NCBI GenBank assembly: GCA_001778695.1
Contig: MFHU01000004.1
Coordinates: 210-64,209 of the forward strand
Direction of reading: 5' to 3'
DNA from: Candidatus Giovannonibacteria bacterium RIFCSPHIGHO2_12_FULL_44_22
GTDB lineage: Bacteria; Patescibacteriota; Minisyncoccia; UBA11713; 2-01-FULL-45-33
Length of the DNA stretch: 64,000 nucleotides
Shown here: positions 4,067 to 53,753 of the stretch, in pieces
How positions within the stretch are numbered: position 1 is the stretch's first letter
How the letters are laid out: the number at the start of each line of letters is the position of its first letter
Notes under the pieces: model-generated
What the model saw: the letters and a program-made list of their open reading frames with translations, nothing else
Told to the model about the DNA's origin: nothing
Databases searched by the model: none
Position numbers and translations under genes: made by a program

Positions 4067-4198
4067 ATGGAAAACGAAAAAATAGAAAAAGAAGATCAGC
4101 CCAAGGCTGACCAGCCTATGGCTGGAAAAATATTGTCCGATGAATTGCTCGCCGAAGATTTGGATTCGGAGCCGTCCCTTGACGATCTGCCGGTTTAA
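4067..4198 (+). CDS. Small acidic hypothetical protein (43 aa)
   Basis: Not in ORF track (<60 aa); strong SD AAGGAGGGG 11 nt upstream of ATG; MENEKIEKEDQPKADQPMAGKILSDELLAEDLDSEPSLDDLPV. Confidence 0.35.
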   Translation: MENEKIEKEDQPKADQPMAGKILSDELLAEDLDSEPSLDDLPV

Positions 4199-6269: not shown

Positions 6270-6623
6270 ATGACCAAGGCGCTCGCAAAAGCGAAAGAAA
6301 AAGAAAAGGAGGCGGAGGAAAAGCAAAGGTTAAGAATCCGCGTGCGGGCTTATGACCATAAAATTTTGGACTCATCCGTAAAACAAATCGTGGACACGGC
6401 TTTGAGATACGGCTCGGAAATACAGGGGCCGGTGCCACTACCTACGGAGATAAAAAAATACACCGTAAACCGTTCTTCTTTCGTCCATAAAAACGCGCGT
6501 GAGCAGTTTGAGATGCGCGTGCACCGGCGCTTGATTGATGTTTTAAACCCCACGGCGAAAGTCGTGGAAGCAATGACTAATCTAAATCTTCCTGCCGGCG
6601 TGGATATTGAAATTAAGATGTAG
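6270..6623 (+). CDS. rpsJ: 30S ribosomal protein S10 (with ~20-aa Lys/Glu-rich N-terminal extension)
   Basis: [13 protein letters not shown]...[33 protein letters not shown]. Confidence 0.9.
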
Positions 6624-7404: not shown

Positions 7405-8055
7405 ATGAAAGTCAATACATATAATATAAAAGGAGAAAAAGCGGAGACTACGGAATTACCGGAGGGGATTTTTGGAGCGGCGTGGAAACCAGCACTAGTG
7501 AAGCAGGTTTTTGACGGCGAGATGGCAAATAAAAGACGCCCTTGGGCGCATACTAAAACCAGGGGCGAGGTCCGTGGCGGAGGCAGAAAGCCATGGCGGC
7601 AAAAAGGAACCGGACGCGCGAGGCATGGCTCAACCAGATCGCCATTGTGGGTTGGGGGAGGAATTGCTCACGGACCGAGAAATGAAAGGGATTATAGCGT
7701 AAAAATAAATAAAAAAATGAGGCGAGGGGCGCTGTTTTCTTTGCTTTCCAGAAAATTAAAAGACAAAGAAATTATTTTGATTGATAATTTTGAAATGGCT
7801 AAATCCAAAACTAGAGAAGCTTTTAATATTTTTAAAAATTTGAGGACAACGGGAGATATTTATAATTTAGGGATAAAAGGGGGGAAAGCGCTTCTGGCTT
7901 TGGCGAAAGGCGACGCTAAAAGGGCGGTCCATAATCTGCCTTTTGTAAATTTTATAGAGCCGAGAAATTTAAACGTCTCCGCGCTTTTGCAGAATAAATA
8001 TTTAATTTTGGATAAGGCCAGCATTAAAGAATTAGAAAAAACTTATGCCAGGTAG
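7405..8055 (+). CDS. rplD: 50S ribosomal protein L4
   Basis: KPWRQKGTGRARHGS...SPLWVGGG L4 signature. Confidence 0.9.
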   Translation: MKVNTYNIKGEKAETTELPEGIFGAAWKPALVKQVFDGEMANKRRPWAHTKTRGEVRGGGRKPWRQKGTGRARHGSTRSPLWVGGGIAHGPRNERDYSVKINKKMRRGALFSLLSRKLKDKEIILIDNFEMAKSKTREAFNIFKNLRTTGDIYNLGIKGGKALLALAKGDAKRAVHNLPFVNFIEPRNLNVSALLQNKYLILDKASIKELEKTYAR

Positions 8056-8186
8056 TGAAAAAATCGATTGCTTTTCGGTGATATTACAAAATCCAGCAGC
8101 TATCCTGCAGCTTTACATTGGGTCGAAATTTGAGGTTATATTTACAAAAGCATTATCATTAATCGATTTTTCTACTACCTGGTATG
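8044..8186 (+). repeat. Start-codon-associated hairpin element, long form (MITE-like), copy 1
   Basis: TATG|CCAGGTAGTGAAAAAATCGATTG...CAATCGATTTTTCTACTACCTGG|TATG; termini are inverted repeats; 3' ATG = rplW start; L4 stop TAG lies inside left terminus. Confidence 0.85.
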
Positions 8187-11490: not shown

Positions 11491-11635
11491 TATGCCAGGT
11501 AGTGAAAAAATCGATTGCTTTTCAGTGATATTACATAACCCGATAAATATCTGGCAATTTTACAGTTGGTCGAATTTTGCTATGTTTGGTTTATTAAAGC
11601 ATTATCACTAATCGATTTTTCTACTACCTGGTATG
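11491..11635 (+). repeat. Start-codon-associated hairpin element, long form, copy 2
   Basis: ~80% identical to copy 1 across 137 nt; same termini; 3' ATG = rpsQ start. Confidence 0.85.
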
Positions 11636-16774: not shown

Positions 16775-17377
16775 ATGATAAATCAACCCTACAATTTTAC
16801 TTTTATTGGACGGTCCGGCTGCGGCAAAGGTGCCCAATCGGAACTTCTTAAAAAATTATTGGAGGGAAAAAATGGCCCCGGCAGCGCGCTTTATATTTAT
16901 ACTGGCGCGCGTTTAAGAGAGCTCGCAGGCCACTCGGAGTTTTTTACAGCGAGATTGTTGAATGAAAAAAGTTTAAAATCCGGTGAGCTAACCCCAAATT
17001 CTTTAGCTATTTGGGCCTACACGACCGAATTTATTCACGGAGTGACGGAAAACAACCACATTATTGTAGACGGTTCTCCGCGCGCGGCGCTGGAAGCGCA
17101 AACGCTGGATGAAATGTTTGATTTTTATGGCAGAGAAAACGTTTTTCATGTTTGGCTGAATGTGAGCGAGGCATGGGCAAACGCGCGCATGAAAGAAAGG
17201 GGGCGATTCGATGACAGTCCTGAGAGCATTAAACACCGTTTCGCTTATTATGAAAGAGAAGTTGTTCCGACAATTGAATTTTACAAAAAAGATAAAAAAC
17301 ACAAGCTTATAGAAATCAATGGCGAGCAGACGATAGAAAAGGTTCACGAAGATATTGTAAAAGCGGCGGGATTATGA
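16775..17377 (+). CDS. adk: Adenylate kinase family protein (atypical P-loop GRSGCGKG, short LID)
   Basis: Position after secY; P-loop NMP kinase fold; ORF-track start 16769 is GTG, ATG at 16775. Confidence 0.65.
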   Translation: MINQPYNFTFIGRSGCGKGAQSELLKKLLEGKNGPGSALYIYTGARLRELAGHSEFFTARLLNEKSLKSGELTPNSLAIWAYTTEFIHGVTENNHIIVDGSPRAALEAQTLDEMFDFYGRENVFHVWLNVSEAWANARMKERGRFDDSPESIKHRFAYYEREVVPTIEFYKKDKKHKLIEINGEQTIEKVHEDIVKAAGL

Positions 17378-17517
17378 CCAGGTAGTGAAAAACTTGATCG
17401 CTTTTTTAAAATTTGTTTGCGATATGGGTTTACTGGGTTATATTGTAGTGGTAGGTGTTTAGCGATAGACTATTGAAAGCAATAAATTTTTAATCAAGTT
17501 TTTTACTACCTGGTATG
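17373..17517 (+). repeat. Start-codon-associated hairpin element, long form, copy 3
   Basis: Same termini (CCAGGTAGTGAAA / TTTTACTACCTGG), different interior; adk stop TGA overlaps left flank; 3' ATG = map start. Confidence 0.8.
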
Positions 17518-27284: not shown

Positions 27285-27359
27285 TATGCCAGGTAGTGAA
27301 ATTTCGCATCACTACTTGGTAGTAATTAAAATTAATGCGAAATTCTACTACCTGGTATG
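27285..27359 (+). repeat. Start-codon-associated hairpin element, short form (67 nt), copy 4
   Basis: TATG|CCAGGTAGTGAAATTTCGCATC-ACTACTTGGTAGT-...-AATGCGAAATTCTACTACCTGG|TATG; 3' ATG = ndk start. Confidence 0.85.
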
Positions 27360-32104: not shown

Positions 32105-34777
32105 ATGAATCAGTGGCACGCCAAAACAATTCCCGAAATTCTTGATGCGCTTCATTCGCGCGAACAGGGCTTAACAAAAGAAGAAGCAACGAAACGTCTC
32201 AAAGAATATGGCCAGAATTATCTTCCCGAAGGTAAGGTAACGAGCCTCCACATTATTTTTCTGCGCCAGTTCCAAAGTCCGCTGATTTACATTCTTCTTG
32301 CGGCAAGCATAATTGTTTTTGCGATGGGAGAAACAATAGACGGCTCAATCATTCTCACAGTTCTTATTTTCAATGCCATTGTCGGGACCATCCAAGAGGG
32401 CAAGGCGCAAAACACGCTTCGGGCGCTCAAGAAATTCGTAGAGACGAAAGCAACCGTGCTTCGCGAAGGAAAAGAGCTTATTATCTCTGACAGCGAAGTG
32501 GTGCCAGGCGATATTATTATTCTGCAGGAAGGCGATAAAGCGCCAGCGGACGCGCGAATCATCGCGGCCGCGAACCTCAAAATTGACGAAGCGGCTCTTA
32601 CGGGCGAATCAGAGCCGGTGCATAAAATTGCCGATACTCTGGAGAGAGATGGCTTGCCAATTACGGAGCAGAAAAACATGATTTTCAAAGGGACGCATGT
32701 TCTTGCCGGAAACGGCAGAGCGATTGTGGTGGCAACTGGCATTGAGACAGTCATTGGAAAAATTTCAAAGGAGATTGCGGCGATTGATACCGAAATTCCT
32801 CTCAAGACAAACATCCGTTATCTTTCACGGCTTATTATTATCACAGTCGCAGGTATCAGCGCTCTCTTGTTTTTTCTCGGCATTGTTTCGGGAAAATCGG
32901 TAAAAGAAATGTTTACTACTATAGTTTCGCTTTCTGTTTCTATCATCCCCGAAGGGCTGCCTATTGTGATGACATTAATACTCGCCACTGGCGTATGGAG
33001 AATGTCAAAGCGAAATGCTCTGGTAAAAAAACTTCAGGCGGTAGAAGCATTGGGGCAAGCACGCGTGATTGCGGTTGATAAAACCGGAACCATCACCAAA
33101 AACGAGATGGTAATCCAGAAAGTGTACCTGGACGGCAAATTTTTCGAAATAGGCGGCATCGGCTACGAACCGAAAGGAGCAATTCAATTAAACGGGAATG
33201 TGGTTGATTCGGTTAATCACCCAGAACTTCTTTTTGCGGGGAAAATCGCCGCTTTTTGCGCAAGCGCCCACGTGATGTTTTCTGAAGAAGAGAAAGTATG
33301 GCGCGTTGCCGGCGACCCAACTGAAGCGGCAATGCTCGTGCTCGCCCAAAAGCTCGGTTTTTACAAGGATGATTTAGAGCGGGAGTCGCCGCTTGTTGGC
33401 GAGATTCCGTTTGATTACAAACTCAAGTATCACGCGACGATTCACCGATTTGACGGCCAAAAGTTTTTAGCCGTTGTTGGCGCGCCGGAAGTAATTTTAA
33501 ACCTTTCTCAAATATCAAAAGAAGAAAAACAAAAATTGGAATCTGTTTTTCTCTCTATGTCGCAAGAAGGGTTGCGGATTATCGCGTTAGCTGAAACTCG
33601 CGACGCGCCGGAAATACTTGCGCCAGAAGAAATTAAATCACTTACTTTTGTAGGATTTTTCGGCATGAAAGACGCGCTTCGGCCAGAGGTGGCGGGAGCT
33701 ATGCAAAAAGCGGTTTCTGCCGGCATCCGAGTGGTAATGATAACAGGAGATCATAAAGTTACGGCGCGGGCGATCGCCAAAGAGGCCGGCATTTATCAAG
33801 ATGGCGATACTATTCTTACAGGACAAGACATTGACGCTTTTTCCGACAACGAGCTTTCCGAAAAATTGGCCGGAACCTCGGTATTCGCGCGAGTAACGCC
33901 GGAACACAAATTGAGAATTATCAAGGCGTATAAGGCGCGCGGGGAAATTGTCGCCATGACCGGAGACGGCGTAAATGACGCCCCCTCGCTCGTTGCCGCC
34001 GACCTTGGCGTGGCAATGGGAAAGATCGGCACGGAGGTGGCAAAAGAAGCTTCGGATATAGTGCTTCTTGACGACAACTTTGGAAGCATTGTTTCTGCAG
34101 TAGAAGAAGGGCGAAGTATTTACAAAACAATTAAAAAAGTAATCCTCTATCTCTTCTCCACCAGCTTGGGAGAAGCGTTGACCATCACAGGCGCGCTTCT
34201 CTTGGGTTATCCTCTCCCTCTTTTGCCGGCGCAGATTATTTGGCTCAACTTTGTTACCGATGGTTTCCTTGATGTGGCGCTTGCCATGGAGCCGAAAGAA
34301 GAAGGACTGCTTCGCGGCAACTTCGAGCGGCCCAAAAAGTATCTGGTAGACAAACTTATGGCGCAGAGAATGTTTATCATGGCTATACCTATGATGATTG
34401 GAACACTGTTTCTTTTTCAGAAATATTTTTCCGCCGGAGGCGGATCCGCCTTTGGCGGAGAAAACGATCTTGCCAAGGCTTGGACAATTTCGCTCACCAC
34501 ACTCGCGGTATTTCAATGGTTCAACGCCTGGAACTGCCGGCACGAATCAAAATCCATTTTCCAAATGAATCCCTTTTCCAACAAATTCTTGGTGGGGGCA
34601 ACGCTTATCATTATCTCCTTGCAGCTTTTAGTGATTTATAATCCGCTCATGCAAAAAATTCTCCGAACCATCGAACTCTCTTTTTCAGAATGGGCGATTA
34701 TTATTCCGATTGCCGCTTCTATCGTTCTTGTCGAGGAAATAAGAAAATTCTTTTATCGGAGAAAAATGGTAACATGA
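32105..34777 (+). CDS. Cation-transporting P-type ATPase (type IIA-like)
   Basis: DKTGTITKN phosphorylation site, TGDGVNDAPSL hinge; contains a 30-nt palindromic in-frame insert. Confidence 0.92.
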   Translation: MNQWHAKTIPEILDALHSREQGLTKEEATKRLKEYGQNYLPEGKVTSLHIIFLRQFQSPLIYILLAASIIVFAMGETIDGSIILTVLIFNAIVGTIQEGKAQNTLRALKKFVETKATVLREGKELIISDSEVVPGDIIILQEGDKAPADARIIAAANLKIDEAALTGESEPVHKIADTLERDGLPITEQKNMIFKGTHVLAGNGRAIVVATGIETVIGKISKEIAAIDTEIPLKTNIRYLSRLIIITVAGISALLFFLGIVSGKSVKEMFTTIVSLSVSIIPEGLPIVMTLILATGVWRMSKRNALVKKLQAVEALGQARVIAVDKTGTITKNEMVIQKVYLDGKFFEIGGIGYEPKGAIQLNGNVVDSVNHPELLFAGKIAAFCASAHVMFSEEEKVWRVAGDPTEAAMLVLAQKLGFYKDDLERESPLVGEIPFDYKLKYHATIHRFDGQKFLAVVGAPEVILNLSQISKEEKQKLESVFLSMSQEGLRIIALAETRDAPEILAPEEIKSLTFVGFFGMKDALRPEVAGAMQKAVSAGIRVVMITGDHKVTARAIAKEAGIYQDGDTILTGQDIDAFSDNELSEKLAGTSVFARVTPEHKLRIIKAYKARGEIVAMTGDGVNDAPSLVAADLGVAMGKIGTEVAKEASDIVLLDDNFGSIVSAVEEGRSIYKTIKKVILYLFSTSLGEALTITGALLLGYPLPLLPAQIIWLNFVTDGFLDVALAMEPKEEGLLRGNFERPKKYLVDKLMAQRMFIMAIPMMIGTLFLFQKYFSAGGGSAFGGENDLAKAWTISLTTLAVFQWFNAWNCRHESKSIFQMNPFSNKFLVGATLIIISLQLLVIYNPLMQKILRTIELSFSEWAIIIPIAASIVLVEEIRKFFYRRKMVT
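34430..34459. repeat. 30-nt double-hairpin palindromic element, in-frame in P-type ATPase
   Basis: TCCGCCGGAGGCGGATCCGCCTTTGGCGGA encodes SAGGGSAFGG. Confidence 0.9.
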
Positions 34778-38896: not shown

Positions 38897-40621
38897 ATGA
38901 CCAATCAGGAAATCGCTAAAATTTTGCGGGAGATGGCGGAGCTCTATGAAATGGAGGATGTGCTTTTCAAGCCGCGCGCTTATGAAAAAGCCGCTTCTGG
39001 CGTGGAAGCTTTGGACAAGGAAATTAAAGAAATTTTCAAAGCAGAGGGCGAAAAAAGTTTGCTCAAAATTCCTGGCGTTGGGCAAGGGATCGCCTTTCAT
39101 ATTTCGGAGCTTTTAAAAAAGGGACATTTTCAAGAATACGACCGGCTCAAGAAAAAAACTCCTGTAAATATTTCGGAACTATCCACGATTGAGGGTGTTG
39201 GCCCAAAAATGATAAAAATTTTATACCAAAAATTAAAAATAAAAAATTTAAAAGATTTAGAACGCGCAGCTCAAGCCGGCAAAATCGCGAAGCTCTCCCG
39301 TTTCGGCAAAAAATCAGAAGAGAAAATTTTAAAAGGCATAGAATTTTTGAAAAAATCCGGCGGCCGGCAAGTTTTAGGGTTTTTACTTCCGGAAATCAGG
39401 GCTTTGGAAAAAATGATTCAAAATTTTCCTGAAGTTGAGGAGGCGATCGTGGCCGGCTCTGTCAGAAGAAGAAAAGAGACAATCGGCGATATTGATATTT
39501 TGGCGATTTCCAAAAAACCGGAGAAAGTAATGGAGCGCTTTATAACTTTGCCTCAAGTGGCGCATGTTTATGCCAAAGGCAAAACTAAAACAATGATTAA
39601 ATTAAAAAACGATTTGGACGCGGATTTACGCGTCGTACCCAAAGAATCATACGGGGCGGCGCTTAATTATTTTACCGGTTCCAAAGATCACAATGTGGCT
39701 TTGAGAGAGACGGCAATTAAACGAGGATGGAAATTAAACGAATATGGGCTGTGGCGCGGCAAAAAACAGGTCGCCGGTCGCACGGAGGAAGAAATTTATA
39801 AAGCGCTGGGGTTCCATTATATTGAACCGGAGATGAGAGAAAATAATGGCGAGTTGGCATTAGCCAAGGCCGGCAAATTGCCGAAACTGATTGGCTACGG
39901 AGATTTACTGGGAGATTTACAAACGCAGACAAATTGGACCGACGGCGAGGACTCAATTGAAAAAATGGCTGAGGAAGCCGAAAAGTTTGGCTTGGAATAT
40001 ATTGTGATAACCGACCACACAAAATCTTTGGCAATGACCGGCGGCGCGGACGAAAAAAAATTGCTGAAGCAGATGGCGGAGATTGATAAAATTAATCTTA
40101 AATTGAAAATTAAAAATTGTAAATTGAAAATTCTTAAGGGCGCGGAGGTGAATATCGGAAAAGACGGCTCTTTGGATATTAAAGATGAGGTTTTGAAAAA
40201 ATTAGATGTGGTCGGGGCGGCTGTGCACAGCCATTTTAAGCTTTCTCGTAATGAGGAGACCAAGCGCGTAATCCGGGCGATGGAAAATCCCAATGTGGAC
40301 ATAATTTTTCACCTGACCGGCAGGATTATAAACCGCCGGGAGCCGATTGAAATTGATATTGATGAAATTATAAAAGCCGCCAAGCGCACCGGCACGGTTT
40401 TGGAAATTGACGCTTTTCCTGACAGGTTAGACATTAAGGATGATTATATAAAAAAGTGCGTGGAAGCGGGCGTGAAAATGTCCATTGATTCCGACGCGCA
40501 TTCAGCCGCGCATTTTAAATTTTTAGAAATCGGCATTGCTCAAGCTCGCCGCGGCTGGGCGGAGAAAAGCGACATAATAAACGCCTGGCCGTTGGAAAAA
40601 ATGCTGAAAATGCTAAAGTAG
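38897..40621 (+). CDS. polX: DNA polymerase/3'-5' exonuclease PolX (Pol beta-like NT domain + PHP domain)
   Basis: HhH motifs, GSVRRRKETIGDIDIL nucleotidyltransferase motif, C-terminal PHP histidines. Confidence 0.85.
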   Translation: MTNQEIAKILREMAELYEMEDVLFKPRAYEKAASGVEALDKEIKEIFKAEGEKSLLKIPGVGQGIAFHISELLKKGHFQEYDRLKKKTPVNISELSTIEGVGPKMIKILYQKLKIKNLKDLERAAQAGKIAKLSRFGKKSEEKILKGIEFLKKSGGRQVLGFLLPEIRALEKMIQNFPEVEEAIVAGSVRRRKETIGDIDILAISKKPEKVMERFITLPQVAHVYAKGKTKTMIKLKNDLDADLRVVPKESYGAALNYFTGSKDHNVALRETAIKRGWKLNEYGLWRGKKQVAGRTEEEIYKALGFHYIEPEMRENNGELALAKAGKLPKLIGYGDLLGDLQTQTNWTDGEDSIEKMAEEAEKFGLEYIVITDHTKSLAMTGGADEKKLLKQMAEIDKINLKLKIKNCKLKILKGAEVNIGKDGSLDIKDEVLKKLDVVGAAVHSHFKLSRNEETKRVIRAMENPNVDIIFHLTGRIINRREPIEIDIDEIIKAAKRTGTVLEIDAFPDRLDIKDDYIKKCVEAGVKMSIDSDAHSAAHFKFLEIGIAQARRGWAEKSDIINAWPLEKMLKMLK

Positions 40622-44492: not shown

Positions 44493-44939
44493 ATGGCAAC
44501 CTTGGCGGAAAATAGGAAAGCGAGATTTGAGTTTGAGATAATGGAAGCTTTTGAAGCGGGGCTGGAGCTTTTTGGTTTTGAAGTGAAAGCAATAAAATCG
44601 CGCAAGATGAGTTTGGAGGGTTCCTATGTTTTTCCGCGTCTAGGCGAATTTTATTTAGTTGGAGCGACCGTTGCGCCGTATCAGCCGAAAAATACGCCCA
44701 AGGATTATGACCAGGCACGCGAGCGCCGGCTATTATTGCATAAAAAAGAGATAGATTATTTAATTGGCAAGGCCGCCGCCAGAAGCTTGACGATATTGCC
44801 CCTTCGGGTATATACTAAGGGTTCTATAATTAAGCTGGAAATCGCGGTTGCCCGAAGGTTGAAACAACGCGACCAAAGAGCGAAAATTATGGAAAGGGAA
44901 GACAAAAGAAAAATTGAGAGAACATTGAAAGAAATTTAA
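44493..44939 (+). CDS. smpB: SsrA-binding protein SmpB
   Basis: ENRKARFEFEI...GFEVKAIK... Confidence 0.92.
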   Translation: MATLAENRKARFEFEIMEAFEAGLELFGFEVKAIKSRKMSLEGSYVFPRLGEFYLVGATVAPYQPKNTPKDYDQARERRLLLHKKEIDYLIGKAAARSLTILPLRVYTKGSIIKLEIAVARRLKQRDQRAKIMEREDKRKIERTLKEI

Positions 44940-45283
44940 GGGGATGATCGGCCTCGAGGGAGAGCGATTGATCATGCGTTCAGGCACCCCGCCAGGGCGG
45001 GGTTAAATCTCACCCCTGGGAAATCAATAAGTGCAAACTTATTTTCTAAAGTAACCGCTGCTTTTGGCGCTTTGCGTCCAATGCAGTTGGCAACTTCTTA
45101 CGCTTAACCGCGTAGGCATCCGTCCTTGATTCTCGCTAAAGGGTCGCGGGTGTTATAAGCGAGAAAAACTCTATCAAGAGTATAACTTGAAAAAATTTTT
45201 CCCGAGAGCAATCGAGGGAATAAGCCTGTAAACCGTAGATCATGATTTTTTCCGACCCGGGTTCAATTCCCGGCATCTCCACA
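44940..45283 (+). ncRNA. ssrA: tmRNA (SsrA)
   Basis: 5' GGGGAUG pairs with 3' CAUCUCC acceptor stem; T-arm CCGGGTTCAATTCCCGG; follows smpB; candidate tag ORF ...ATSYA*. Confidence 0.7.
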
Positions 45284-45312
45284 TCTTGGGTTTTTTAAGC
45301 TAAAGTTAACTT

Positions 45313-46914
45313 ATGTTTCGCGCCGAAATTAAGGAAGAGATAAAAAAGATTGTTAAAAAAATTTTTCTCGCCCAAGGCGGGCCAACCTTAGGCTGGTCGG
45401 TTGAAAGAAGTGAATCCGCCAGCTGGCGGACGGAGCATGGAGATTATTCCAGCAACGCGGCTCTGGTTTTAGCAAAAAGAGAGACGAAAAATCCTAGAGA
45501 AGTTGCGGAGGAAATTAAACAACAGTTACTTAGACGTCCGACATCTAAGTCCGAGAAGACGTTCGACGTCTTGAAATTTATCGAGCGGGTTGAAATCGCA
45601 GGACCGGGATTTTTGAATTTTTTTATTTCGCGCTCCGCGCTAACCGCAGAGCTCCAAGGTATTTTAAAAAATAAGAAATCTATTTTTAAATCCAATAATG
45701 ATAAATTGCGAATAAATCTTGAATTTGTTTCGGCAAACCCAACTGGACCGTTAACCATGGCCAATAGCAGAGGCGGTTTTTACGGCGACGCGCTGGCAAA
45801 TATTTTAAAGGCGGTTGGCCACAAGGTCACGCGAGAATATTTTATTAATGACGCAGGCAACCAAATAAAACTTTTGGGCGAAAGTATTTTAGCGGCTGAA
45901 GGCAATCTGCCAGCTGGCGGACCCGTAAAAGAAGAATATTATAAGGGCGCGTATATAAAAAAATTAAAAGGCAAGACCGCGGACGAGGCTGTAAAAATTT
46001 TGCTTTCTGGAATCAAAAAGTCTTTAAAAAAAGCAGGAATAAAATTTGATGTTTGGTTTTCGGAAGAAAAGAATTTGCGAAAAAAAGGGGAACTAAAAAA
46101 AGTTTTAGAGCTTTTAAATAAAAAAAAGTTATTAAAAGAGAGGGGGGGAGCGTTATGGCTTGGGGATGCCGTAGCTGTCAAATCAAATCAGGAATATACT
46201 TATTTTTTGGCGGATTTGGCGTACCACTATGATAAATTTATAAAAAGAAAATTTGATTTGGTTATTAATATTTGGGGAGCGGATCACCATGGCTATGTCG
46301 CGCGGATGCAAAAAGGAGCCGAAGCTCTAAGCGTTAATCCGGCGCGCCTTAAAATTATTATTATGCAGTTGGTGCGCTTGATAAGCCAGGGAAAAGAAGT
46401 AAAAATGTCCAAGCGCGCTGGGGAATTCATAACTTTGGACGATTTATTAAAAGAAGTTGGGCTTGACGCCGCTCGTTGGTTTTTTTTAGAGCGCTCGCCG
46501 GACACCCATATGGATTTTGATTTGGATTTGGCGAAAGAGCGTTCTAAAAAAAATCCGGTTTATTACGTCCAGTACGCGCACGCGAGAGCATGCAGTATTT
46601 TACGAAAAGGCAAGGCGGGGAAAAAGCCCAATCTTCAATTATTAATTCAACCAGAAGAATTTACTCTCATCAAAAAAATTCTGCAACTTTCTGAAATTAT
46701 TGAAGATATCACTGGCGATTTTCAGGTTCATCGGCTTACCCGCTATGTCTATGAGCTTGCGCAGGCCTTTACGAATTTTTATGAAAAACAACATGTAATT
46801 GATAAAGAAAATAAAGAGCTAACACAAGCCCGCTTAGCATTAGTTTCGGCAACGCAAAAAACCATAAAAAACGGTCTGAATCTTCTGGGTATTTCCGCTC
46901 CGGAGAAAATGTGA
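45313..46914 (+). CDS. argS: Arginine--tRNA ligase
   Basis: ArgRS N-domain, class I catalytic core, DALR anticodon-binding domain. Confidence 0.9.
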   Translation: MFRAEIKEEIKKIVKKIFLAQGGPTLGWSVERSESASWRTEHGDYSSNAALVLAKRETKNPREVAEEIKQQLLRRPTSKSEKTFDVLKFIERVEIAGPGFLNFFISRSALTAELQGILKNKKSIFKSNNDKLRINLEFVSANPTGPLTMANSRGGFYGDALANILKAVGHKVTREYFINDAGNQIKLLGESILAAEGNLPAGGPVKEEYYKGAYIKKLKGKTADEAVKILLSGIKKSLKKAGIKFDVWFSEEKNLRKKGELKKVLELLNKKKLLKERGGALWLGDAVAVKSNQEYTYFLADLAYHYDKFIKRKFDLVINIWGADHHGYVARMQKGAEALSVNPARLKIIIMQLVRLISQGKEVKMSKRAGEFITLDDLLKEVGLDAARWFFLERSPDTHMDFDLDLAKERSKKNPVYYVQYAHARACSILRKGKAGKKPNLQLLIQPEEFTLIKKILQLSEIIEDITGDFQVHRLTRYVYELAQAFTNFYEKQHVIDKENKELTQARLALVSATQKTIKNGLNLLGISAPEKM

Positions 46915-46959
46915 TAGATTTGAGTTAGATAAAAAGATACACAAAGAGAGGAGGCTGTT

Positions 46960-47613
46960 ATGCAAAAATATATCGCAATTGCTTTTTTATTTTTTCTTTG
47001 GTCATTTTCAATCGGGCTTGCCCAAGATAGGCCGGCGGAATTCAAAGAATTCGAGGAAATAGTTTCATGGGTTCTTAGATTTTCTGATGGATACGCGATT
47101 CCTAATCAAAGGCAAGCATGGATTAAGCAAGCAGAACGATATGAAGCTTTTGCTGCAAAATATCCGAAATCACCGCTTGTCGCTGAAGCAAAACTGCAGG
47201 CAGCTTCCATTTACCGGACGATAGAAACTCCGGAAGTCGGCGATTTGCGCATAGAAGCGGAAAATTGCGTCGCCAGAGCTCCCAGAAAAACATACATAGA
47301 GATTTGCGAAATTCTGTTTAATTTGAAAATTCGCGGGATGGAAAAAGATAAATTTTTCTTAGACAAGGCCAACAAAATGTTCTTGGAAATTGCGGAAAAA
47401 TTTGGGCACGAGAAAAGATATGTAATGTCCAGTCAACGCGCGGGCCGCTTCGAATTTGTGGATGAAGACGTTGGCGCTTACGCCCTTATGATATTTGTGG
47501 AGAGTATTTCTGACAAGCAAACACATCGTAGTTTGATGAGTATAATTTTGAAGCATTTCAAAATAAATGATCAAATTAAAGAAGCCCTTGAGAGTTATTT
47601 GAAAAACAATTAA
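46960..47613 (+). CDS. Hypothetical secreted protein (signal peptide)
   Basis: SD GAGGAGG; MQKYIAIAFLFFLWSFSIGLAQD signal. Confidence 0.5.
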   Translation: MQKYIAIAFLFFLWSFSIGLAQDRPAEFKEFEEIVSWVLRFSDGYAIPNQRQAWIKQAERYEAFAAKYPKSPLVAEAKLQAASIYRTIETPEVGDLRIEAENCVARAPRKTYIEICEILFNLKIRGMEKDKFFLDKANKMFLEIAEKFGHEKRYVMSSQRAGRFEFVDEDVGAYALMIFVESISDKQTHRSLMSIILKHFKINDQIKEALESYLKNN

Positions 47614-47644
47614 CATTTTTCCGTGGTTTGCGCGGAAAAAGACT

Positions 47645-47673
47645 GCCCCGCCTTTCATTAGGCGGGTTTTTTT
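47645..47673 (+). terminator. Rho-independent terminator (CCCCGCC...GGCGGG + T7)
   Basis: GC stem, 8-nt loop, TTTTTTT. Confidence 0.8.
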
Positions 47674-47686
47674 GTTATACTTTTTT

Positions 47687-47761
47687 TATACCAGGCAGTG
47701 AAACTTCGCGTTGCTGCTTGGCAGTTATTAAACTTAACGCGAAGTTCTACTACCTGGTATG
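47687..47761 (+). repeat. Start-codon-associated hairpin element, short form (67 nt), copy 5
   Basis: TATA|CCAGGCAGTGAAACTTCGCGTTG-GCTGCTTGGCAGT-...-AACGCGAAGTTCTACTACCTGG|TATG; 3' ATG = ileS start. Confidence 0.8.
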
Positions 47762-50700
47762 TTTGATGAAAAGGAGATTTTGAATTTTTGGGAGAAAAAT
47801 AAGATTTTTGAGCGCAGTGTAAATAACAGAAAAGGCAAGAAACCGTTTATTTTTTATGAGGGCCCGCCGACGGCCAATAATGTCCCGCATATGGGGCATT
47901 TTGAAACGCGCGTTTTTAAAGATGTAGTTTTAAGGTATAAAACAATGCGTGGGTTCTACGCGCCCCGCCGAGCGGGGTGGGACACGCACGGTCTGCCGGT
48001 GGAGGTGGAGGTTGAAAAAACCTTGGGGCTGAAAAATAAAAAAGATATAGAAAAATATGGCATTGCGGCTTTTAACAAAAAGTGCAGAGAATCGGTTTGG
48101 AAATATAAGGAGCTTTGGGAAAGGATGACACATCGCATGGGTTTTTGGATAGATATGGAACGCCCCTATATCACTTATGGAAATTCTTACATAGAATCTC
48201 TTTGGGGAATAATAAAAAAATTCGCGGATAAAAATTTGCTTTATGAAGATTACAAAGTAATGCCCTGGTGCGCGAGGTGTGGCACGGCATTATCCAGCCA
48301 TGAATTGGCACAAGGATATGAGAAAATCAACGAAAACTCTATTTTCGTTAAATTTCCAATTCGCCTGCCGGACGGACAGGTTTCCAATTCACAATTTTCA
48401 AACTCATATTTTCTAGTTTGGACAACAACTCCCTGGACATTGCCTGGAAACGTTGCCTTGGCTGTGAATCCAAAAATTGATTATGTCTTTGCAAAAAAAG
48501 ATGATTCAGACGAAACGCTGATTTTAGCGGAATCGCGAGTATCTGCTTTGGGAGAAGAATTTAAAATTTTAAAAAAAGCGCGCGGATCAGAATTTGTCGG
48601 CAATAAATATGAACCATTATATTCAAATAACGCTCCATATAAAGTAGTCGGTGGCGATTTTGTTTCTGCGGAAGAGGGCACGGGCATTGTTCATATCGCT
48701 CCAGCTTTTGGCGAAGACGATTTTCAACTTTCCAAAAAATTTAATTTGCCGGTTCTTGCGACAACGGATGAGCGTGGTCTGATGCGCGCGCCGGGAAAAC
48801 CATGGAATGGCGAGTGGTTTTCCGCCCTAGGCGGACCCGCCTCTGGCGGGAAAAAAGCGAACGAATTAATTATTGAAGACCTAAAATCACGCGGACTTTT
48901 ATTTAAAACTGAACTTTACGAACACGATTATCCATTTTGCTGGAGATGCAAAACGCCCTTGATGTATTTCGCCAGAAAATCTTGGTGGGTGGACGTAAAT
49001 AAAGTGAGAAAAAATCTGATAGCCAATAACCGCTCCATAAATTGGTATCCCGAGCATACTAAAGAGGGCCGGATGGGCGAGTGGCTGAAGGAAGAAAAAA
49101 ATTGGGCGTTTTCTAGAGAACGTTATTGGGGCACACCTTTGCCGATTTGGCGGTGCGAAAAGTGCAAGAAATGGGAAACATTCGGTTCAATAGAAGAATT
49201 AAAAAAACGCAACGCAACTTCAGGAAATAAATATTTTATAATGCGCCACGGAGAGGCGGAGAGCAACATAAAAAATATTGTGAACGGGGACATAAATAAA
49301 AATCACTACCCGCTTACACCGAGAGGCAAAAAACAAGTTGAGGTCTCGGTTAAAAATTTGCTTAAGAAAAAAATAAAACCCGATTTAATTTTTTCTTCCC
49401 CGTTTTTGCGCGCAGAAGAAACAGCAGAACTCATCGGGCAAAAATTAAGCATTGATAAGCAAAATATAAAAATTGATCCGCGATTTGGGGAAGTATATTG
49501 GGGTATTTTTGATGATACTGACCCTGCCAAATATCACGCTTATTATAAAAATCCGTTGGAGAAATTCGAGAAAGCTCCGCCGGAAGGCGAATCATTTTTG
49601 GATGTTAAAAAAAGAGTTTGGGACGCGCTTTCAGAGATTGAAGCGAGATACAAAAATAAAACCGTTTTAATAATAAGCCATGAAGACCCTATTTGGATGC
49701 TTTGGGCGGCCGCGGAAGGCAAAAACAATACGGAGTCGCTTTTGGAAAACAAAAAGCGAGATCAGTTTATAAAAACCGCAGAGTTTATCGAATTAAATCC
49801 TAATTTCCCGGCGCTTCCGCGCGACGAGAGTCTGATTTTGAATTTACACAAGCCGTATATTGATGAAATTAAATTAAAATGCCAATGCGGAGGCCAAATG
49901 CGAAGAGTGTCGGAGGTTTGCGATGTTTGGTTTGATTCGGGGGCAATGCCATTTGCGGCCAAGTATTATCCCAAATTGTATCCATCGGACTACATAACAG
50001 AAGGAGTTGATATGACTCGCGGATGGTTTTACACGCTTTTGGCCGTGGCTACTTTGCTTGGTAAAAAAGCGCCTTACAAAAATATAATTTCATTAGGGCA
50101 TGTTTTGGATGAAAAAGGGAAGAAGCTTTCCAAATCTTTGGGAAATTTTGTGGACCCGATGATTTTGATTGAAAAATACGGCGCGGAGCCGGCTCGGTGG
50201 TATTTTCTTACGGTAAACCAGCCGTGGGATTCCAAGCTTTTCAGGGAAGCAGACATCAAAGACGCCTCGCGCAGATTCCTCGTGATTCTGTGGAATGTTT
50301 TGCAATTTTGGAAAATATATGGAGGGAAATCTGGGAAAATTATTAGGTCCAAACTTCTAATCAATAAATGGGTTTTGGCGAAACTATCTGAAACCGCAAA
50401 TGCTATCACAAAAAAACTAGACAATTATGATATTGTCGGCGCCGCGCGCGAGCTGGAAAATTTTGTGACGGAGGATATTTCCCGTTGGTATATTCGCCGG
50501 ATTCGCGACGTGATGAAAGAAAATTCCTCCGTATCCAAAGAGACAAGTGCGGTTTTGCGCCATGTGCTTTTGGAAATTTCAAAACTTCTCGCCCCCTTCG
50601 CGCCGTTTATTTCGGAAAAAATTTGGTTGGAACTCGGAAATAAAAATAGCGTTCATCTGGAAGATTGGCCTCGCGGCCTGGAAATACAGCGAGGCAGTAT

Positions 50701-51151
50701 TTTGAAATTCATGCAAGAAACCAGAAGGATAGTTGGTCTTGCGCTGGAGGAGAGAGCCAAAGTAGGTATTAAAGTTAGACAGCCGCTCGCGCTTTTAAAA
50801 TTAAATAAAACTTATTCAAAACTCACCGCGGACTTTTTAGCGTTAATTAAAGCCGAGGTCAATGTTAAAGATATTGTTTTTGATTCTACATTGAAGGACG
50901 AAGTCCGGTTAGATACAAATATTACACCAAAATTAAAAGAAGAAGGCCTGCTCCGCGATCTTATCCGCGAAATCCAATCGGCTAGAAAAACGGCTGGTTT
51001 GAAGCCCAAAGACAAAGTAGCCGCCCAAATCTTCCTACCAAAAGAAATTTTAGAAATCGCCGAAAAATATGAAAAAGACTTAATGAAAGAGACAGGTTTA
51101 AAATCTCTCCACCTTTCCGAATCTCCCGCAATAAAAATTTCATTGAAATAA
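47759..51151 (+). CDS. ileS: Isoleucine--tRNA ligase with inserted histidine-phosphatase (PGM-like) domain
   Basis: HMGH, KLSKSLGN, DVWFDSG; RHGEAESN ... ISHEDPIWMLW module inserted at ~49225..49800 between CxxC and CxC. Confidence 0.9.
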   Translation: MFDEKEILNFWEKNKIFERSVNNRKGKKPFIFYEGPPTANNVPHMGHFETRVFKDVVLRYKTMRGFYAPRRAGWDTHGLPVEVEVEKTLGLKNKKDIEKYGIAAFNKKCRESVWKYKELWERMTHRMGFWIDMERPYITYGNSYIESLWGIIKKFADKNLLYEDYKVMPWCARCGTALSSHELAQGYEKINENSIFVKFPIRLPDGQVSNSQFSNSYFLVWTTTPWTLPGNVALAVNPKIDYVFAKKDDSDETLILAESRVSALGEEFKILKKARGSEFVGNKYEPLYSNNAPYKVVGGDFVSAEEGTGIVHIAPAFGEDDFQLSKKFNLPVLATTDERGLMRAPGKPWNGEWFSALGGPASGGKKANELIIEDLKSRGLLFKTELYEHDYPFCWRCKTPLMYFARKSWWVDVNKVRKNLIANNRSINWYPEHTKEGRMGEWLKEEKNWAFSRERYWGTPLPIWRCEKCKKWETFGSIEELKKRNATSGNKYFIMRHGEAESNIKNIVNGDINKNHYPLTPRGKKQVEVSVKNLLKKKIKPDLIFSSPFLRAEETAELIGQKLSIDKQNIKIDPRFGEVYWGIFDDTDPAKYHAYYKNPLEKFEKAPPEGESFLDVKKRVWDALSEIEARYKNKTVLIISHEDPIWMLWAAAEGKNNTESLLENKKRDQFIKTAEFIELNPNFPALPRDESLILNLHKPYIDEIKLKCQCGGQMRRVSEVCDVWFDSGAMPFAAKYYPKLYPSDYITEGVDMTRGWFYTLLAVATLLGKKAPYKNIISLGHVLDEKGKKLSKSLGNFVDPMILIEKYGAEPARWYFLTVNQPWDSKLFREADIKDASRRFLVILWNVLQFWKIYGGKSGKIIRSKLLINKWVLAKLSETANAITKKLDNYDIVGAARELENFVTEDISRWYIRRIRDVMKENSSVSKETSAVLRHVLLEISKLLAPFAPFISEKIWLELGNKNSVHLEDWPRGLEIQRGSILKFMQETRRIVGLALEERAKVGIKVRQPLALLKLNKTYSKLTADFLALIKAEVNVKDIVFDSTLKDEVRLDTNITPKLKEEGLLRDLIREIQSARKTAGLKPKDKVAAQIFLPKEILEIAEKYEKDLMKETGLKSLHLSESPAIKISLK
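48821..48850. repeat. 30-nt double-hairpin palindromic element (degenerate copy), in-frame in ileS
   Basis: TCCGCCCTAGGCGGACCCGCCTCTGGCGGG encodes SALGGPASGG. Confidence 0.8.
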
Positions 51152-51158
51152 AAAAATA

Positions 51159-51174
51159 GGGGCGACTTCGCCCC
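51159..51174. terminator. GC hairpin (GGGGCG-ACTT-CGCCCC) between convergent ileS and 51202 gene
   Basis: T-run on minus-strand side (rc of AAATAAAAAAATAG). Confidence 0.55.
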
Positions 51175-51201
51175 AATTCGGGACCAGATTGATTCCAAAA
51201 C

Positions 51202-51585
51202 CTAATTTGGCCATAGCGCGAGCAATTTTATCAGCCCGCCATCAAAAATGAACAGGAACAGCCAGTGCCCGGCTGAGATTGCTATGACAAACGGCCAGGC
51301 AATCTGTATCAGTCTCCATTGCCACATTGCCATTTCTTCTCCGCCGCAAAACAGATATACGCCATTCCCCATGACTGTTTCCACTAGCCCTGAGCCGACC
51401 ATGTTTTTGCAGGCTCGCTCAATGTCGCCCGCGATCAAATATCCGACATTGAGATAGATTGCCGCGATAAACAGAAGTATTAAGATTCCTACTACTAGCT
51501 TCTTCTTGCGATATTTGGCATTTACTGCCTCCGCCATTTTTTGGCCGTCAATCCTGCTATCATCCCTGCTAATACTACTTTCCAT
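51202..51585 (-). CDS. Hypothetical membrane protein (127 aa)
   Basis: Strong SD AAGGAGGGG upstream; 3 TM. Confidence 0.45.
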   Translation of the reverse strand: MESSISRDDSRIDGQKMAEAVNAKYRKKKLVVGILILLFIAAIYLNVGYLIAGDIERACKNMVGSGLVETVMGNGVYLFCGGEEMAMWQWRLIQIAWPFVIAISAGHWLFLFIFDGGLIKLLALWPN

Positions 51586-51717
51586 AAAATACCCCTCCTT
51601 TTGGGTTGTTTTTGAGCCTAAATAAGGCTAGTTTTTATTGTTCTCTGCTTCTATTATACACCCAAAGGAGGTGGTTGTCAATAGTGACAATTCGGACAGA
51701 TGATATAAGCTTTAGAT

Positions 51718-52005
51718 ATGGCTAACGGTACTATAACAATAATTCCTAAAAAAATTACCGGTGGAGTTGAAGATTTGGTCATGTTGCCGCGCGGTGAATT
51801 TGAGGAAATGCAGGAGCGCCTGCGCCAAGTGCCGGTCCTGAAAAGATACGAAATTGTACATCATCAAAAAAAACAATACCAAGTTCCAGTATATCAATTG
51901 ATTGGAAAAGCAGCTTCGCGTCTTGATAGAAGAGTCAAAGCGGCTCTGAGAGAATTTAAGGCTGGCAGAACAAAGCCGCTTAAGTCTTTGGCGGAGCTTA
52001 GGTAA
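51718..52005 (+). CDS. Putative antitoxin (AbrB/MazE-like N-terminus)
   Basis: Small ORF immediately upstream of RelE-like toxin; C-terminus related to the 61729 ORF (RTKPLKSLAELR vs KTRKLKSFRDLR). Confidence 0.4.
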   Translation: MANGTITIIPKKITGGVEDLVMLPRGEFEEMQERLRQVPVLKRYEIVHHQKKQYQVPVYQLIGKAASRLDRRVKAALREFKAGRTKPLKSLAELR

Positions 52006-52361: not shown

Positions 52362-52922
52362 ATGCCCAGCGCGTATTTTAAAACCGAAGGTTTAATTATT
52401 AAAAAGATGCCTTTTGCGGAGGCGGATTTTTTGGTGAGAGTTTTTACGAAAGATTTCGGCAAAATGGACGCGCTGGCGAAAGGCGCGAGGAAAACCGCTT
52501 CAAAACTCAATCCGCATCTGGATATTTTAAACCATATCCGCATGCAGTTTGTGAAAAACGGCGAGCGGATTTCGACATTAATGGACGCCGAGATTATCTC
52601 TAAATACGATGATTGGTTTTTGACCGCGGATAAACTCTCTGTCGCGGGAAGAATTTTACAGGTAATTGATATGGTTATTCTGCCCGGCGCCAAAGACGGA
52701 AAATTATTTTTTATGTTACTGGATTTTTTTTCCGCCCGAGGCGGATCCGCCTTTGGCGGAGGATCTTTTGAGACTGTGGCAATAAATTTCCTCCGCAATT
52801 TTTTTAAGCACGAGGGCTACGGCGACACTTTGCCGGGTAGTGAAGCGCAGCTCTACTACCCGGCTTTGCCAGATTATTGTAGAGAAGCTATTATTAAACT
52901 TTGGCCTCAATTAAAAAATTGA
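52362..52922 (+). CDS. recO: DNA repair protein RecO (short, C-terminal region remodelled)
   Basis: N-terminal OB-fold FKTEGLIIKKMPFAEADFLVRVFTKDFGKMDALAKGARK; 186 aa; C-terminus carries two palindromic inserts. Confidence 0.65.
   Translation: MPSAYFKTEGLIIKKMPFAEADFLVRVFTKDFGKMDALAKGARKTASKLNPHLDILNHIRMQFVKNGERISTLMDAEIISKYDDWFLTADKLSVAGRILQVIDMVILPGAKDGKLFFMLLDFFSARGGSAFGGGSFETVAINFLRNFFKHEGYGDTLPGSEAQLYYPALPDYCREAIIKLWPQLKN
52731..52760. repeat. 30-nt double-hairpin palindromic element, in-frame in recO
   Basis: TCCGCCCGAGGCGGATCCGCCTTTGGCGGA encodes SARGGSAFGG. Confidence 0.9.
52833..52863 (+). repeat. 31-nt mini version of the start-codon hairpin element, in-frame inside recO
   Basis: CCGGGTAGTGAAG-CGCAG-CTCTACTACCCGG encodes PGSEAQLYYP. 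Confidence 0.75.
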
Positions 52923-53608: not shown

Positions 53609-53753
53609 TATGCCAGGTAGTGAAATTTCGCATCGTCGCTACGCGACGCGCTTTTATTGAGTGTGGCAGGCGCATTATTTTAAGGTATAATGGTTTTATG
53701 TTCAACAACGTCAAAACAATTACTAGCAATGCGAAATTCTACTACCTGGTATG
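53609..53753 (+). repeat. Start-codon-associated hairpin element, long form, copy 6
   Basis: Shares subterminal TTTCGCATC/ATGCGAAA with short copy 4; 137 nt; 3' ATG = start of 53751 gene. Confidence 0.85.

Follow-up and report, generated by a model that had tools for sequence, protein, structure and literature searches.

We analysed a stretch of 64,000 nucleotides from the uncultured groundwater organism Candidatus Giovannonibacteria bacterium RIFCSPHIGHO2_12_FULL_44_22 (contig MFHU01000004.1, positions 210 to 64,209 of the forward strand), which is called the window below. It carries a 30-bp element composed of two small abutting hairpins, and copies of this element lie in-frame inside the genes of a P-type ATPase, of RecO and of the arginyl-, isoleucyl- and methionyl-tRNA synthetases (ArgRS, IleRS and MetRS). 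An earlier note, made from the letters of the window alone, had listed four in-frame copies, in the ATPase gene, ileS, recO and metG. The coordinates it gave were right, and Pfam and translation agree with the hosts it named. The full count was six in the 64 kb, five of them in-frame in genes and one intergenic; the four listed copies stand, but the intergenic one and a diverged one in the ArgRS gene had been overlooked. The six copies are:

4096-4125, + strand: intergenic stem variant between the open reading frames (ORFs) 1644-3779 and 4235-4915, TCAGCC-CAA-GGCTGA-CCAGCC-TAT-GGCTGG
34430-34459, no strand: ATPase copy, TCCGCC-GGA-GGCGGA-TCCGCC-TTT-GGCGGA, canonical and dyad-symmetric; in-frame peptide SAGGGSAFGG; flanks TTT and GAA
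45367-45396, + strand: ArgRS copy, diverged, CTCGCC-CAA-GGCGGG-CCAACC-TTA-GGCTGG; in-frame peptide LAQGGPTLGW; TTT directly before it
48821-48850, + strand: IleRS copy, TCCGCC-CTA-GGCGGA-CCCGCC-TCT-GGCGGG, of the [T-A][C-G] sub-family; in-frame peptide SALGGPASGG
52731-52760, no strand: RecO copy, TCCGCC-CGA-GGCGGA-TCCGCC-TTT-GGCGGA, canonical; in-frame peptide SARGGSAFGG
62955-62984, no strand: MetRS copy, TCCGCC-AAA-GGCGGA-TCCGCC-TCT-GGCGGA, canonical; in-frame peptide SAKGGSASGG

The host genes are:

32105-34777, + strand: P-type (Ca2+-type) cation ATPase (Pfam Cation_ATPase_N/C, E1-E2_ATPase, Hydrolase)
45313-46914, + strand: ArgRS (Pfam Arg_tRNA_synt_N, tRNA-synt_1d, DALR_1)
47759-51151, + strand: IleRS (Pfam and homologs), with an inserted His_Phos_1 domain too
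52362-52922, + strand: RecO (Pfam RecO_N; synteny with loci L123 and L125)
62214-63800, + strand: MetRS (Pfam tRNA-synt_1g and homologs)

The histidine-phosphatase domain (His_Phos_1) of IleRS occupies residues 493-657, and it is listed for 120/120 of the homologs retrieved from the candidate phyla radiation (CPR).

The IUPAC pattern of the element matched four sites in the window, against 0.00 expected from dinucleotide-preserving shuffles, and all four are in-frame within + strand ORFs. Perfect CCGCC-NNN-GGCGG hairpins occurred in the window solely as tandem pairs at these same sites. We further used a generic scan for any two adjacent hairpins (6-bp stem, 3-nt loop) and a covariance model built from 60 copies. 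The generic scan found the intergenic copy, which scored 43 bits with the covariance model (E 4e-11). Its C-G pair is replaced by A-T in both hairpins, it contains a TGA if read in frame 0, and it folds as two hairpins (-11.5 kcal/mol, z -4.8). The ArgRS copy was detected by the covariance model (25.9 bits, E about 5e-6); it is a putative insertion, as solved structures fail to align over the ArgRS N-terminus.

Some details of the earlier note had to be corrected. It had placed a TTTT run before three of the four copies, but while TTT precedes 4/4, a run of at least four T precedes only 2/4. The ileS copy, which it had called degenerate, belongs to a widespread sub-family whose second hairpin is closed by C-G and not by T-A (a compensated change). 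Copies had also been assigned to both orientations, yet orientation is undefinable for the three dyad-symmetric copies. The statement that both orientations give the same peptide holds, since it follows from the dyad symmetry of the element.

Distribution, anatomy and target of the element

Further copies, which the earlier note had left in question, were found in both scans that we ran. In GTDB (one genome per species), the 30-mer with 24/24 stem bases identical was present at at least 120 loci, every match listed coming from a metagenome-assembled genome. For the C-G variant, metagenome contigs likewise yielded at least 120 loci. Together this amounts to more than 240 loci beyond the window, every one metagenome-derived. 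Among the GTDB matches listed, CPR lineage labels account for 63 loci (about half), Gammaproteobacteria for 11 (labels as recorded), Omnitrophota for 10, Kiritimatiellae/Lentisphaerae/Verrucomicrobiota for 8, and Planctomycetes and Ignavibacteria for 4 each, the last including Ignavibacteriota contigs of 1.6 Mb; Chloroflexota, Margulisiibacteriota, Auribacterota, Firestonebacteria and others were labelled as well. Only two viral contigs in 2.9 million had the element. Plasmids (7.3 Gb) and phages (2.3 Gb) showed chance-level partial matches only, and an E. coli collection (28 Gb) showed no match. Phage, plasmid or E. coli were rejected as carriers on account of this near-absence.

In the unit two hairpins abut, YCCGCC-NRA-GGCGGR and then YCCGCC-TYN-GGCGGR, with stems of 6 bp and loops of 3 nt. 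It is the doublet that forms the unit, since 134 doublets and 0 triplets were counted, and the 21 singlets were mostly decayed doublets. On either strand the loop of the 5' hairpin reads N-R-A (with A third in 94%) and that of the 3' hairpin T-Y-N. As the 57 copies outside ORFs obey this loop rule too, it belongs to the DNA rather than to the peptide. Among the copies scanned, no hairpin pair was seen to flank an ORF in the way that an autonomous form would.

When position 30 was left free (R) among copies with C at position 16, we observed G in 121 and A in 3 of the metagenome matches listed. A Ser-to-Pro change here goes together with the synonymous change of GGA to GGG, and only base pairing inside hairpin 2 accounts for this coupling. 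Eleven further stem variants were fully compensated, and several of these could not fold into one long hairpin. Orthologous ileS copies that share the rare loop CTA have TCC..GGA in hairpin 2 in one lineage and CCC..GGG in three. The covariation supports two separate 6-bp hairpins. A single long hairpin or cruciform, which is the predicted minimum free energy fold of symmetric copies, was also considered as the selected structure, and it was ruled out by the 121:3 covariation and by the variants that can form two hairpins only. For the RNA, strong folding is predicted (-22 to -29 kcal/mol). We also observed that 13-15% of non-coding or ambiguous copies lie at the apex of larger palindromes, compared with 1.7% of control TT junctions. 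These enclosing palindromes are typically GTAG-tagged, resemble repetitive extragenic palindromic (REP) sequences and have a TT/AA centre (a slash within a sequence marks the point of insertion, here and below).

Sites lacking the insert were found for all four pattern-matched copies. In metG, the syntenic closest relative, L123 (82% nucleotide identity), reads ACA AAA TTC/AAA AAT where the window reads GAA TTT[30 nt]AAA AAA. In recO, the syntenic ortholog in L123 reads GAT TTC TTT/GGA AAA, and the window TTT TTT[30 nt]GGA TCT. For ileS, a 73%-identical homolog has the empty site TGG TTC/AAA AAA, and in a 98.7%-identical homolog (TGG TTT/AAA) the 30 nt are missing as an exact gap. The ATPase reads GYF/ENDL without the insert in about 110/120 homologs (76-89% identical). 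When solved structures were used, the insert corresponded to an exact 10-residue gap in the alignment of MetRS to 4dlp and to an exact 10-aa gap in that of IleRS to T. thermophilus IleRS (1ile), while the ATPase insert was placed in the M7-M8 loop relative to the SPCA1 structure 8iww, with an 8-residue gap. In the AlphaFold model of MetRS (mean pLDDT 88.7) residues 247-258, that is the insert and two neighbours, have pLDDT <50, and the inserted peptide is thus modelled as an unstructured loop. Judged from these sequence comparisons, the 30-nt copies are insertions in metG, recO, ileS and the ATPase gene; the earlier note had taken the 10 residues for an extra surface-loop insertion rather than conserved sequence, and the orthologs bear this out.

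No duplicated bases were seen in the four empty-site comparisons or in two nested insertions. The consensus of the insertion site is T-Y-N/N-R-A. The flanks are T(60%)-T(82%)-[T/C/G] on the left and [A/G/C]-A-A on the right, and non-coding copies show the same preference. Copies of the asymmetric sub-family can be oriented; these have Y at -2 in 95% and R at +2 in 88%, and the target is therefore two-sided and symmetric. Relative to genes, the orientation of this sub-family showed no clear bias (19 vs 28 copies). Both nested insertions (n=2) lie after position 24 of the host copy (TCCGCC-TYN/GGCGGA), and one of them is in-frame in a ComM-like gene.

Reading frame and conservation within host genes

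The coding analysis covered 257 distinct copies, and a copy was taken as inside a gene when it lay well within an ORF of at least 200 aa. This was the case for 103/257, whereas 57/257 had no spanning ORF of at least 100 aa. Frame 0, which gives S-A-x-G-G-(S/P)-A-x-G-G, was used by 87 of the 103, frame 1 by 11 and frame 2 by 5. We examined target choice as a cause of this bias and rejected it, as the TTB/VAA target hexamers differ little in frequency between the three phases of the window coding sequence (155:96:132). Target availability therefore cannot explain the frame bias, while selection after insertion can. A stop-triplet loop on the sense strand was found in 0/87 frame-0 copies, and six had a stop on the antisense strand only. 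Copies in frames 1 and 2 are rare and are read through in real proteins, as in SLRQRRIRLGRKK from a NifS-like gene (a frame-2 copy). Survival within genes was thus shown to occur almost only in one phase, as a Gly/Ser/Ala loop in surface or linker regions.

The frame-0 hosts, 60 of which match 124 Pfam families, include RNA polymerase beta and beta' (rpoB, rpoC), DNA polymerase III alpha (dnaE), PGK, class I and class II aminoacyl-tRNA synthetases and Mur ligases. Decayed copies (SAKGGPAMGR, GSVLGG), one half copy and one interrupted copy are still in-frame in intact genes, which argues that the insert is translated and tolerated. We infer that the 30 nt are translated and not removed from the RNA. 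Among the ATPase homologs, P0276 has a double-hairpin copy interrupted by extra sequence, and in P0298 one decayed hairpin is left.

The conservation of resident copies was evaluated between insertion-bearing orthologs. Third positions of stem codons were identical in 51/52 (98%), compared with 112/204 (55%) for codons of an unchanged amino acid no more than 20 codons away in either direction (Fisher p = 1e-10). In the rest of the host genes, four-fold sites were 36-59% identical, and the loops of the orthologous copies vary. Selection or homogenisation therefore keeps the stems intact once a copy has been inserted.

The ileS, ATPase and metG insertions are each common to a minority of lineages which are not closest relatives overall, and the local identity profiles around the insertions are mosaic. 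The metagenome contig L254 (JGI 3300009031) matches the window at 100% identity along about 5.9 kb (45,941-51,887), one patch excepted. In this patch (48,757-48,992; 236 nt) there are 47 substitutions and an exact absence of the 30 nt (GGTTT/AAAAAA), and it matched no sampled lineage. It looks as though filled and empty alleles travel, along with neighbouring markers, by short-patch homologous recombination. When compared with window 44700-52000, L254 was unalignable or highly divergent before 45,940 and after 51,888; these mosaic ends suggest frequent recombination among co-occurring Giovannonibacteria, or a chimeric assembly.

Origin of the element and rival explanations

We consider the element to be, probably, a structure-defined, non-autonomous mobile DNA element of 30 bp, similar in kind to REPs and to Rickettsia palindromic elements (RPEs). 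It is inserted precisely at T-Y-N/N-R-A without target duplication, the TYN loop of another copy being one such site, and has reached hundreds of sites in many uncultured phyla. Owing to the dyad symmetry, either orientation yields the same peptide, and within genes the copies are filtered by frame after insertion. An enzyme supplied in trans would recognise the two hairpins and mobilise the element. The conservation of the stems would come from recognition by the mobilising machinery (homogenisation) or from host use. As regards the reaction, our leading guess, a tentative one, is a single-strand 'peel-and-paste' mechanism of the HUH/Y1 type. Once excised, the 30 nt would form a circle folded as a 12-bp dumbbell, GGCGGATCCGCC, with the two triloops as caps, and it is because of this stable dumbbell, the structure-defined ends and the lack of target duplication that we favour this type. 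A dimeric enzyme acting on duplex DNA would fit the two-sided symmetric target equally well and is equally open. We also entertain, with similar reserve, the idea that the hairpin pair is a selected functional unit (a 'REP inside genes') that in both orientations would give a harmless Gly/Ser loop, or the smallest self-propagating DNA, in which case a 30-nt single-stranded dumbbell circle would transpose and overwrite resident copies.

Several observations weigh against a mobile element of this kind. Among the roughly 25 window ORFs scanned with Pfam there was no mobilising enzyme or transposase. In 1.8 Mb of element-bearing loci we found two Y1_Tnp genes (IS200-like; in L163 and L178), and both are associated with their own GTAG-tagged REPs and not with the double-hairpin element; neither of these RAYT-like genes therefore looks cognate to it. 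There is no room in the element for the guide sequences of IS200/IS605, and its two-sided symmetric target is unlike the one-sided targets of that family. Loop bases and flank bases showed no covariation (p > 0.5 for predicted pairs). The loops were considered as IS608-like guides, since T-Y-N complements the N-R-A consensus, yet individual copies show no association and this was rejected. Translation of the insert is read from the sequence, and the ortholog statistics come from comparisons that are not phylogenetically independent. Conserved stems at resident orthologous copies are not what a purely selfish element predicts. Finally, the clearest polymorphism within a population is a recombination patch and not a clean transposition or excision, on a contig that is mosaic and could be chimeric.

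The conserved stems could instead mean that the hairpin pair is a maintained cis-acting signal, that is a DNA or RNA binding or processing site inside genes, and we regard this as possible though doubtful. Its partner would be a conserved protein, for example a topoisomerase or nucleoid protein, an RNase or a pausing factor; in very compact genomes the signal would need to sit inside coding sequence, and mobility would explain the origin of the copies while host selection explains their persistence. The near-identity of stem codons in orthologous copies (98%, against 55% for flanking synonymous codons, with variable loops) is in its favour, as is pairing kept by compensated changes, one of them at an orthologous site. 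The same stem sequence across phyla implies that sequence is recognised and not pairing alone, and the depletion from coding sequence is weaker than expected from random insertion followed by selection. REPs also have proposed host roles, as gyrase sites and in mRNA stabilisation (PMC3733652). A maintained signal is difficult to reconcile, however, with close relatives that have no copy (the 98.7%-identical IleRS included), with sites that differ between genomes and affect 124 unrelated families, and with decayed, halved and interrupted copies that persist without loss of the gene; it also has no known binding partner. Uniform stems might alternatively arise by repair and without function, if mismatches in extruded hairpins were corrected against the other arm, or if short-patch conversion, templated by other copies or by free element DNA, repeatedly overwrote resident copies. 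Compensated double changes are indeed common among the variants, there is short-patch recombination around the element in ileS and metG, and each genome offers many identical templates (six copies in 64 kb here). But arm-to-arm correction keeps pairing and not sequence, and TCCGCC with GGCGGA is kept where four-fold sites are near saturation. Repair would also lead one to expect many compensated changes between orthologs, while one was seen in seven comparisons, and 30 bp of identity is marginal for homologous conversion. We think this explanation unlikely.

If the insert were removed from the RNA or bypassed by the ribosome (as a mini-intron or a translational hop), the proteins would be without the 10 residues. 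This would account for the stem conservation, it suits the strong predicted RNA folding, and ribosomes do bypass GC-rich hairpin inserts in Magnusiomyces mitochondria. Removal or bypass would make frame and stops irrelevant, yet the frames are 87:11:5 and sense-strand stop loops 0/87. Copies that have lost pairing remain in-frame in intact genes, the frame-2 copy of the NifS-like gene is read through, and Rfam 15 gives only a tmRNA in the window at gathering thresholds; we therefore hold removal or bypass to be very improbable. For an intein, ten residues are too few. The peptide is uniform, Gly/Ser-rich and linker-like, as a conserved protein motif selected at the peptide level might be, and this we can hardly credit, since the 24 stem bases are identical, synonymous positions included, in phyla whose GC content differs. 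The 57 copies outside ORFs of at least 100 aa follow the same loop rules, the non-synonymous S-to-P change is coupled to the synonymous GGA-to-GGG change by 121 to 3 among the matches listed, and there are orthologs without the peptide. An assembly, scaffolding or library artefact might be suspected from the metagenomic source of all occurrences and from the BamHI site at the centre of the element, but we give it practically no weight. The contig names indicate different assemblers and pipelines (RIFCSP scaffolds, k141_, NODE_, megabase MFD contigs). Exact matches to the insert-bearing window proteins occur on 26-41 independent contigs; the ATPase, for instance, is 100% identical to a Candidatus Giovannonibacteria RIFCSPLOWO2_01_FULL protein present on 36 contigs. 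Orthologous copies with different loops and flanking substitutions come from four or five independent samples, and in every case the difference is an in-frame indel of 30 nt, clean and located at a loop.

If the element is mobile, as we think probable, it may be the smallest gene-invading mobile element described so far, and its spread over many phyla without cultured members points to an unrecognised and widespread mobilising activity. Were it a functional unit or a self-propagating circle, an unknown and widely distributed enzyme system would be carrying out scarless, site-specific insertion of a 30-mer. An enzyme that places a defined 30-mer without target duplication would be a potential tool. 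The design (open in all frames, the same flexible peptide either way, the triloop hairpins kept) would be that of selfish DNA fitted to near-zero intergenic space. The conservation of stems at synonymous sites in essential genes raises the question whether the host uses them or whether their uniformity comes from the element's own machinery. For practical purposes, the copies show where RNA polymerase, DNA polymerase III, aminoacyl-tRNA synthetases and transporters have loops that tolerate an insertion. The copies also account for some unexplained 10-residue insertions in CPR proteins, and can mislead alignments and phylogenies.

Other palindromic repeats and comparison with known systems

The window also contains a second repeat family, with six copies on the + strand (8046-8186, 11493-11635, 17376-17517, 27287-27359, 47689-47761 and 53611-53753). 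Its layout is (T)ATG/CCAGGTAGTGAAA, 40-110 variable nt and TTTCTACTACCTGGT/ATG, the left flank also being TATG. At least 5/6 copies end exactly at a start codon, that of ileS included, and the copy at 11493-11635 has no matched ORF. The family looks like a miniature inverted-repeat transposable element (MITE) with terminal inverted repeats of about 13 nt, a TATG/ATG duplication and the start codon as target, or else like a conserved 5' leader hairpin. An in-frame 33-nt miniature of it (GCCGGGTAGTGAAGC-GCA-GCTCTACTACCCGGC) lies in RecO at 52832-52864, within the segment GSEAQLYYPALPD. This miniature is missing from both syntenic orthologs, and RecO therefore holds two different palindromic inserts.

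Inserts of other kinds were observed in homologs of the host proteins. In the loop of the window 62955 insert, the MetRS homologs P0005, P0006, P0015, P0016 and P0058 carry PPTPLLxKEGGEGG and GSPTSxGxRTS, which read as if translated from other families of palindromic repeats, CCCCTCCTT...AAGGAGGGG for example. The ATPase homologs P0250 and P0271 (variant LPAGQAG) have an insert LPAEASAQAG one residue upstream of the 34430 site, and P0249, P0279 and P0281 have LPAEASAQAG too (position not shown). The window MetRS has a second segment with pLDDT <50 at residues 400-410 (63411-63443). It lies inside a stretch (about residues 400-411) that is gapped against solved structures, and going by the model this stretch may be another lineage-specific insertion.

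Some further repeats were seen at loci outside the window. In L005, from a metagenome-assembled genome of Kiritimatiellae, an intergenic repeat of ~185 nt occurs in two copies 1.8 kb apart (4569-4752 and 6390-6572), and it holds the 30-mer together with another widespread palindromic repeat (translation HPERSEE...ARNDN). The RAYT-like Y1 gene of L163 (5917-6489) is flanked by GTAGGGGACGTTTAAACGTCCCCTAC repeats, and that of L178 (10280-10780) has such a GTAG repeat in-frame inside itself. Among the other features of the window are a family X DNA polymerase with a PHP domain (Pol X) at 38897-40621 and a tmRNA gene at 44940-45284, with the tag peptide ANLFSKVTAAFGALRPMQLATSYA.

The known elements that the 30-mer calls to mind include RPEs, to which the earlier note had likened it. 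As far as the summary in PMC10969869 describes them (after Ogata et al. 2000), RPEs are palindromic repeats which lie in-frame in unrelated housekeeping genes, are translated and are absent from orthologs. In behaviour the likeness stands: both are in-frame, translated, palindromic and selfish-looking, occupy permissive sites and are absent from orthologs. Membership of the RPEs does not stand. RPEs are about 100-150 bp long, fall into ten families and are found in Rickettsia only, whereas the present element has 30 bp, a fixed two-hairpin architecture and no sequence similarity to them. It is also dyad-symmetric, giving the same peptide both ways, and its hosts are uncultured bacteria of more than ten phylum-level groups; no Rickettsia record was among the matches listed.

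REPs and REPINs are GC-rich palindromes of 20-40 bp, in which the doublet replicates, compensatory changes keep the hairpins and mobilisation is by RAYT (PMC3116915, PMC3733652). REPs are non-autonomous, a few are inside genes, and some families are present in several species (PMC3116915, PMC3733652). They bear a GTAG or CGTC tag at one end and are mostly extragenic (PMC3733652). The present element is likewise short, GC-rich, palindromic and multi-copy (30 bp, six copies in 64 kb and more than 240 loci elsewhere). It has no GTAG/CGTC tag, however, since it starts with TCCGCC, ends with GGCGGA and is flanked by TTN and NAA, GTAG being found only in the enclosing palindromes. While REPs are mostly extragenic, 103/257 copies of the element are well inside ORFs, mostly in one frame. 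In REPIN doublets, inverted REPs are separated by a spacer (about 70-110 bp), and here the hairpins abut without one. MITEs differ in having terminal inverted repeats, a target-site duplication and a length of about 50-500 bp, compared with 30 bp and no duplication for the element.

Small dispersed repeats (SDRs, 21-27 nt) of heterocyst-forming cyanobacteria reportedly have hairpin potential, lie in genes and can be nested, the enzyme not being known. They resemble the element in being very small mobile repeats, inside genes and nested, and differ in sequence and in lineage (cyanobacteria only). SDRs are not known to have a fixed double-hairpin architecture or to favour one reading frame. The mitochondrial double-hairpin elements of Allomyces and the GC clusters of yeast also consist of two adjacent GC-rich hairpins, are mobile, show presence/absence polymorphism and can enter coding regions. 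These belong to organelles and not to bacterial chromosomes, vary in length, in many cases disrupt genes or have to be bypassed, and have no sequence relationship to the element. In IS200/IS605 (by the IS608 mechanism), hairpins form the ends, insertion takes place 3' of a specific tetra- or pentanucleotide that pairs with a guide beside the hairpin, and a single-stranded circle is possible. The palindrome-associated elements derived from this family are similar in their hairpin-defined ends, their short specific site and the lack of target-site duplication, but they keep the guides and a one-sided target, whereas the element has no room for a guide and a two-sided symmetric target.

By analogy, the element thus appears closest to RPEs in behaviour and to REP/REPIN in anatomy and evolution, and it recalls SDRs and the mitochondrial double-hairpin elements, while differing from each compared family in the features that define it. 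A search of the full-text literature, the hairpin unit sequences included and subscription-only papers lying outside it, gave no prior description; the matches were cloning primers with BamHI sites and general papers on REPs, RPEs and MITEs. Together, these comparisons have led us to conclude that what is unusual here, within the small palindromic non-autonomous elements, is the size, the reach across phyla, the orientation-independent coding and the maintenance of the stems in situ.

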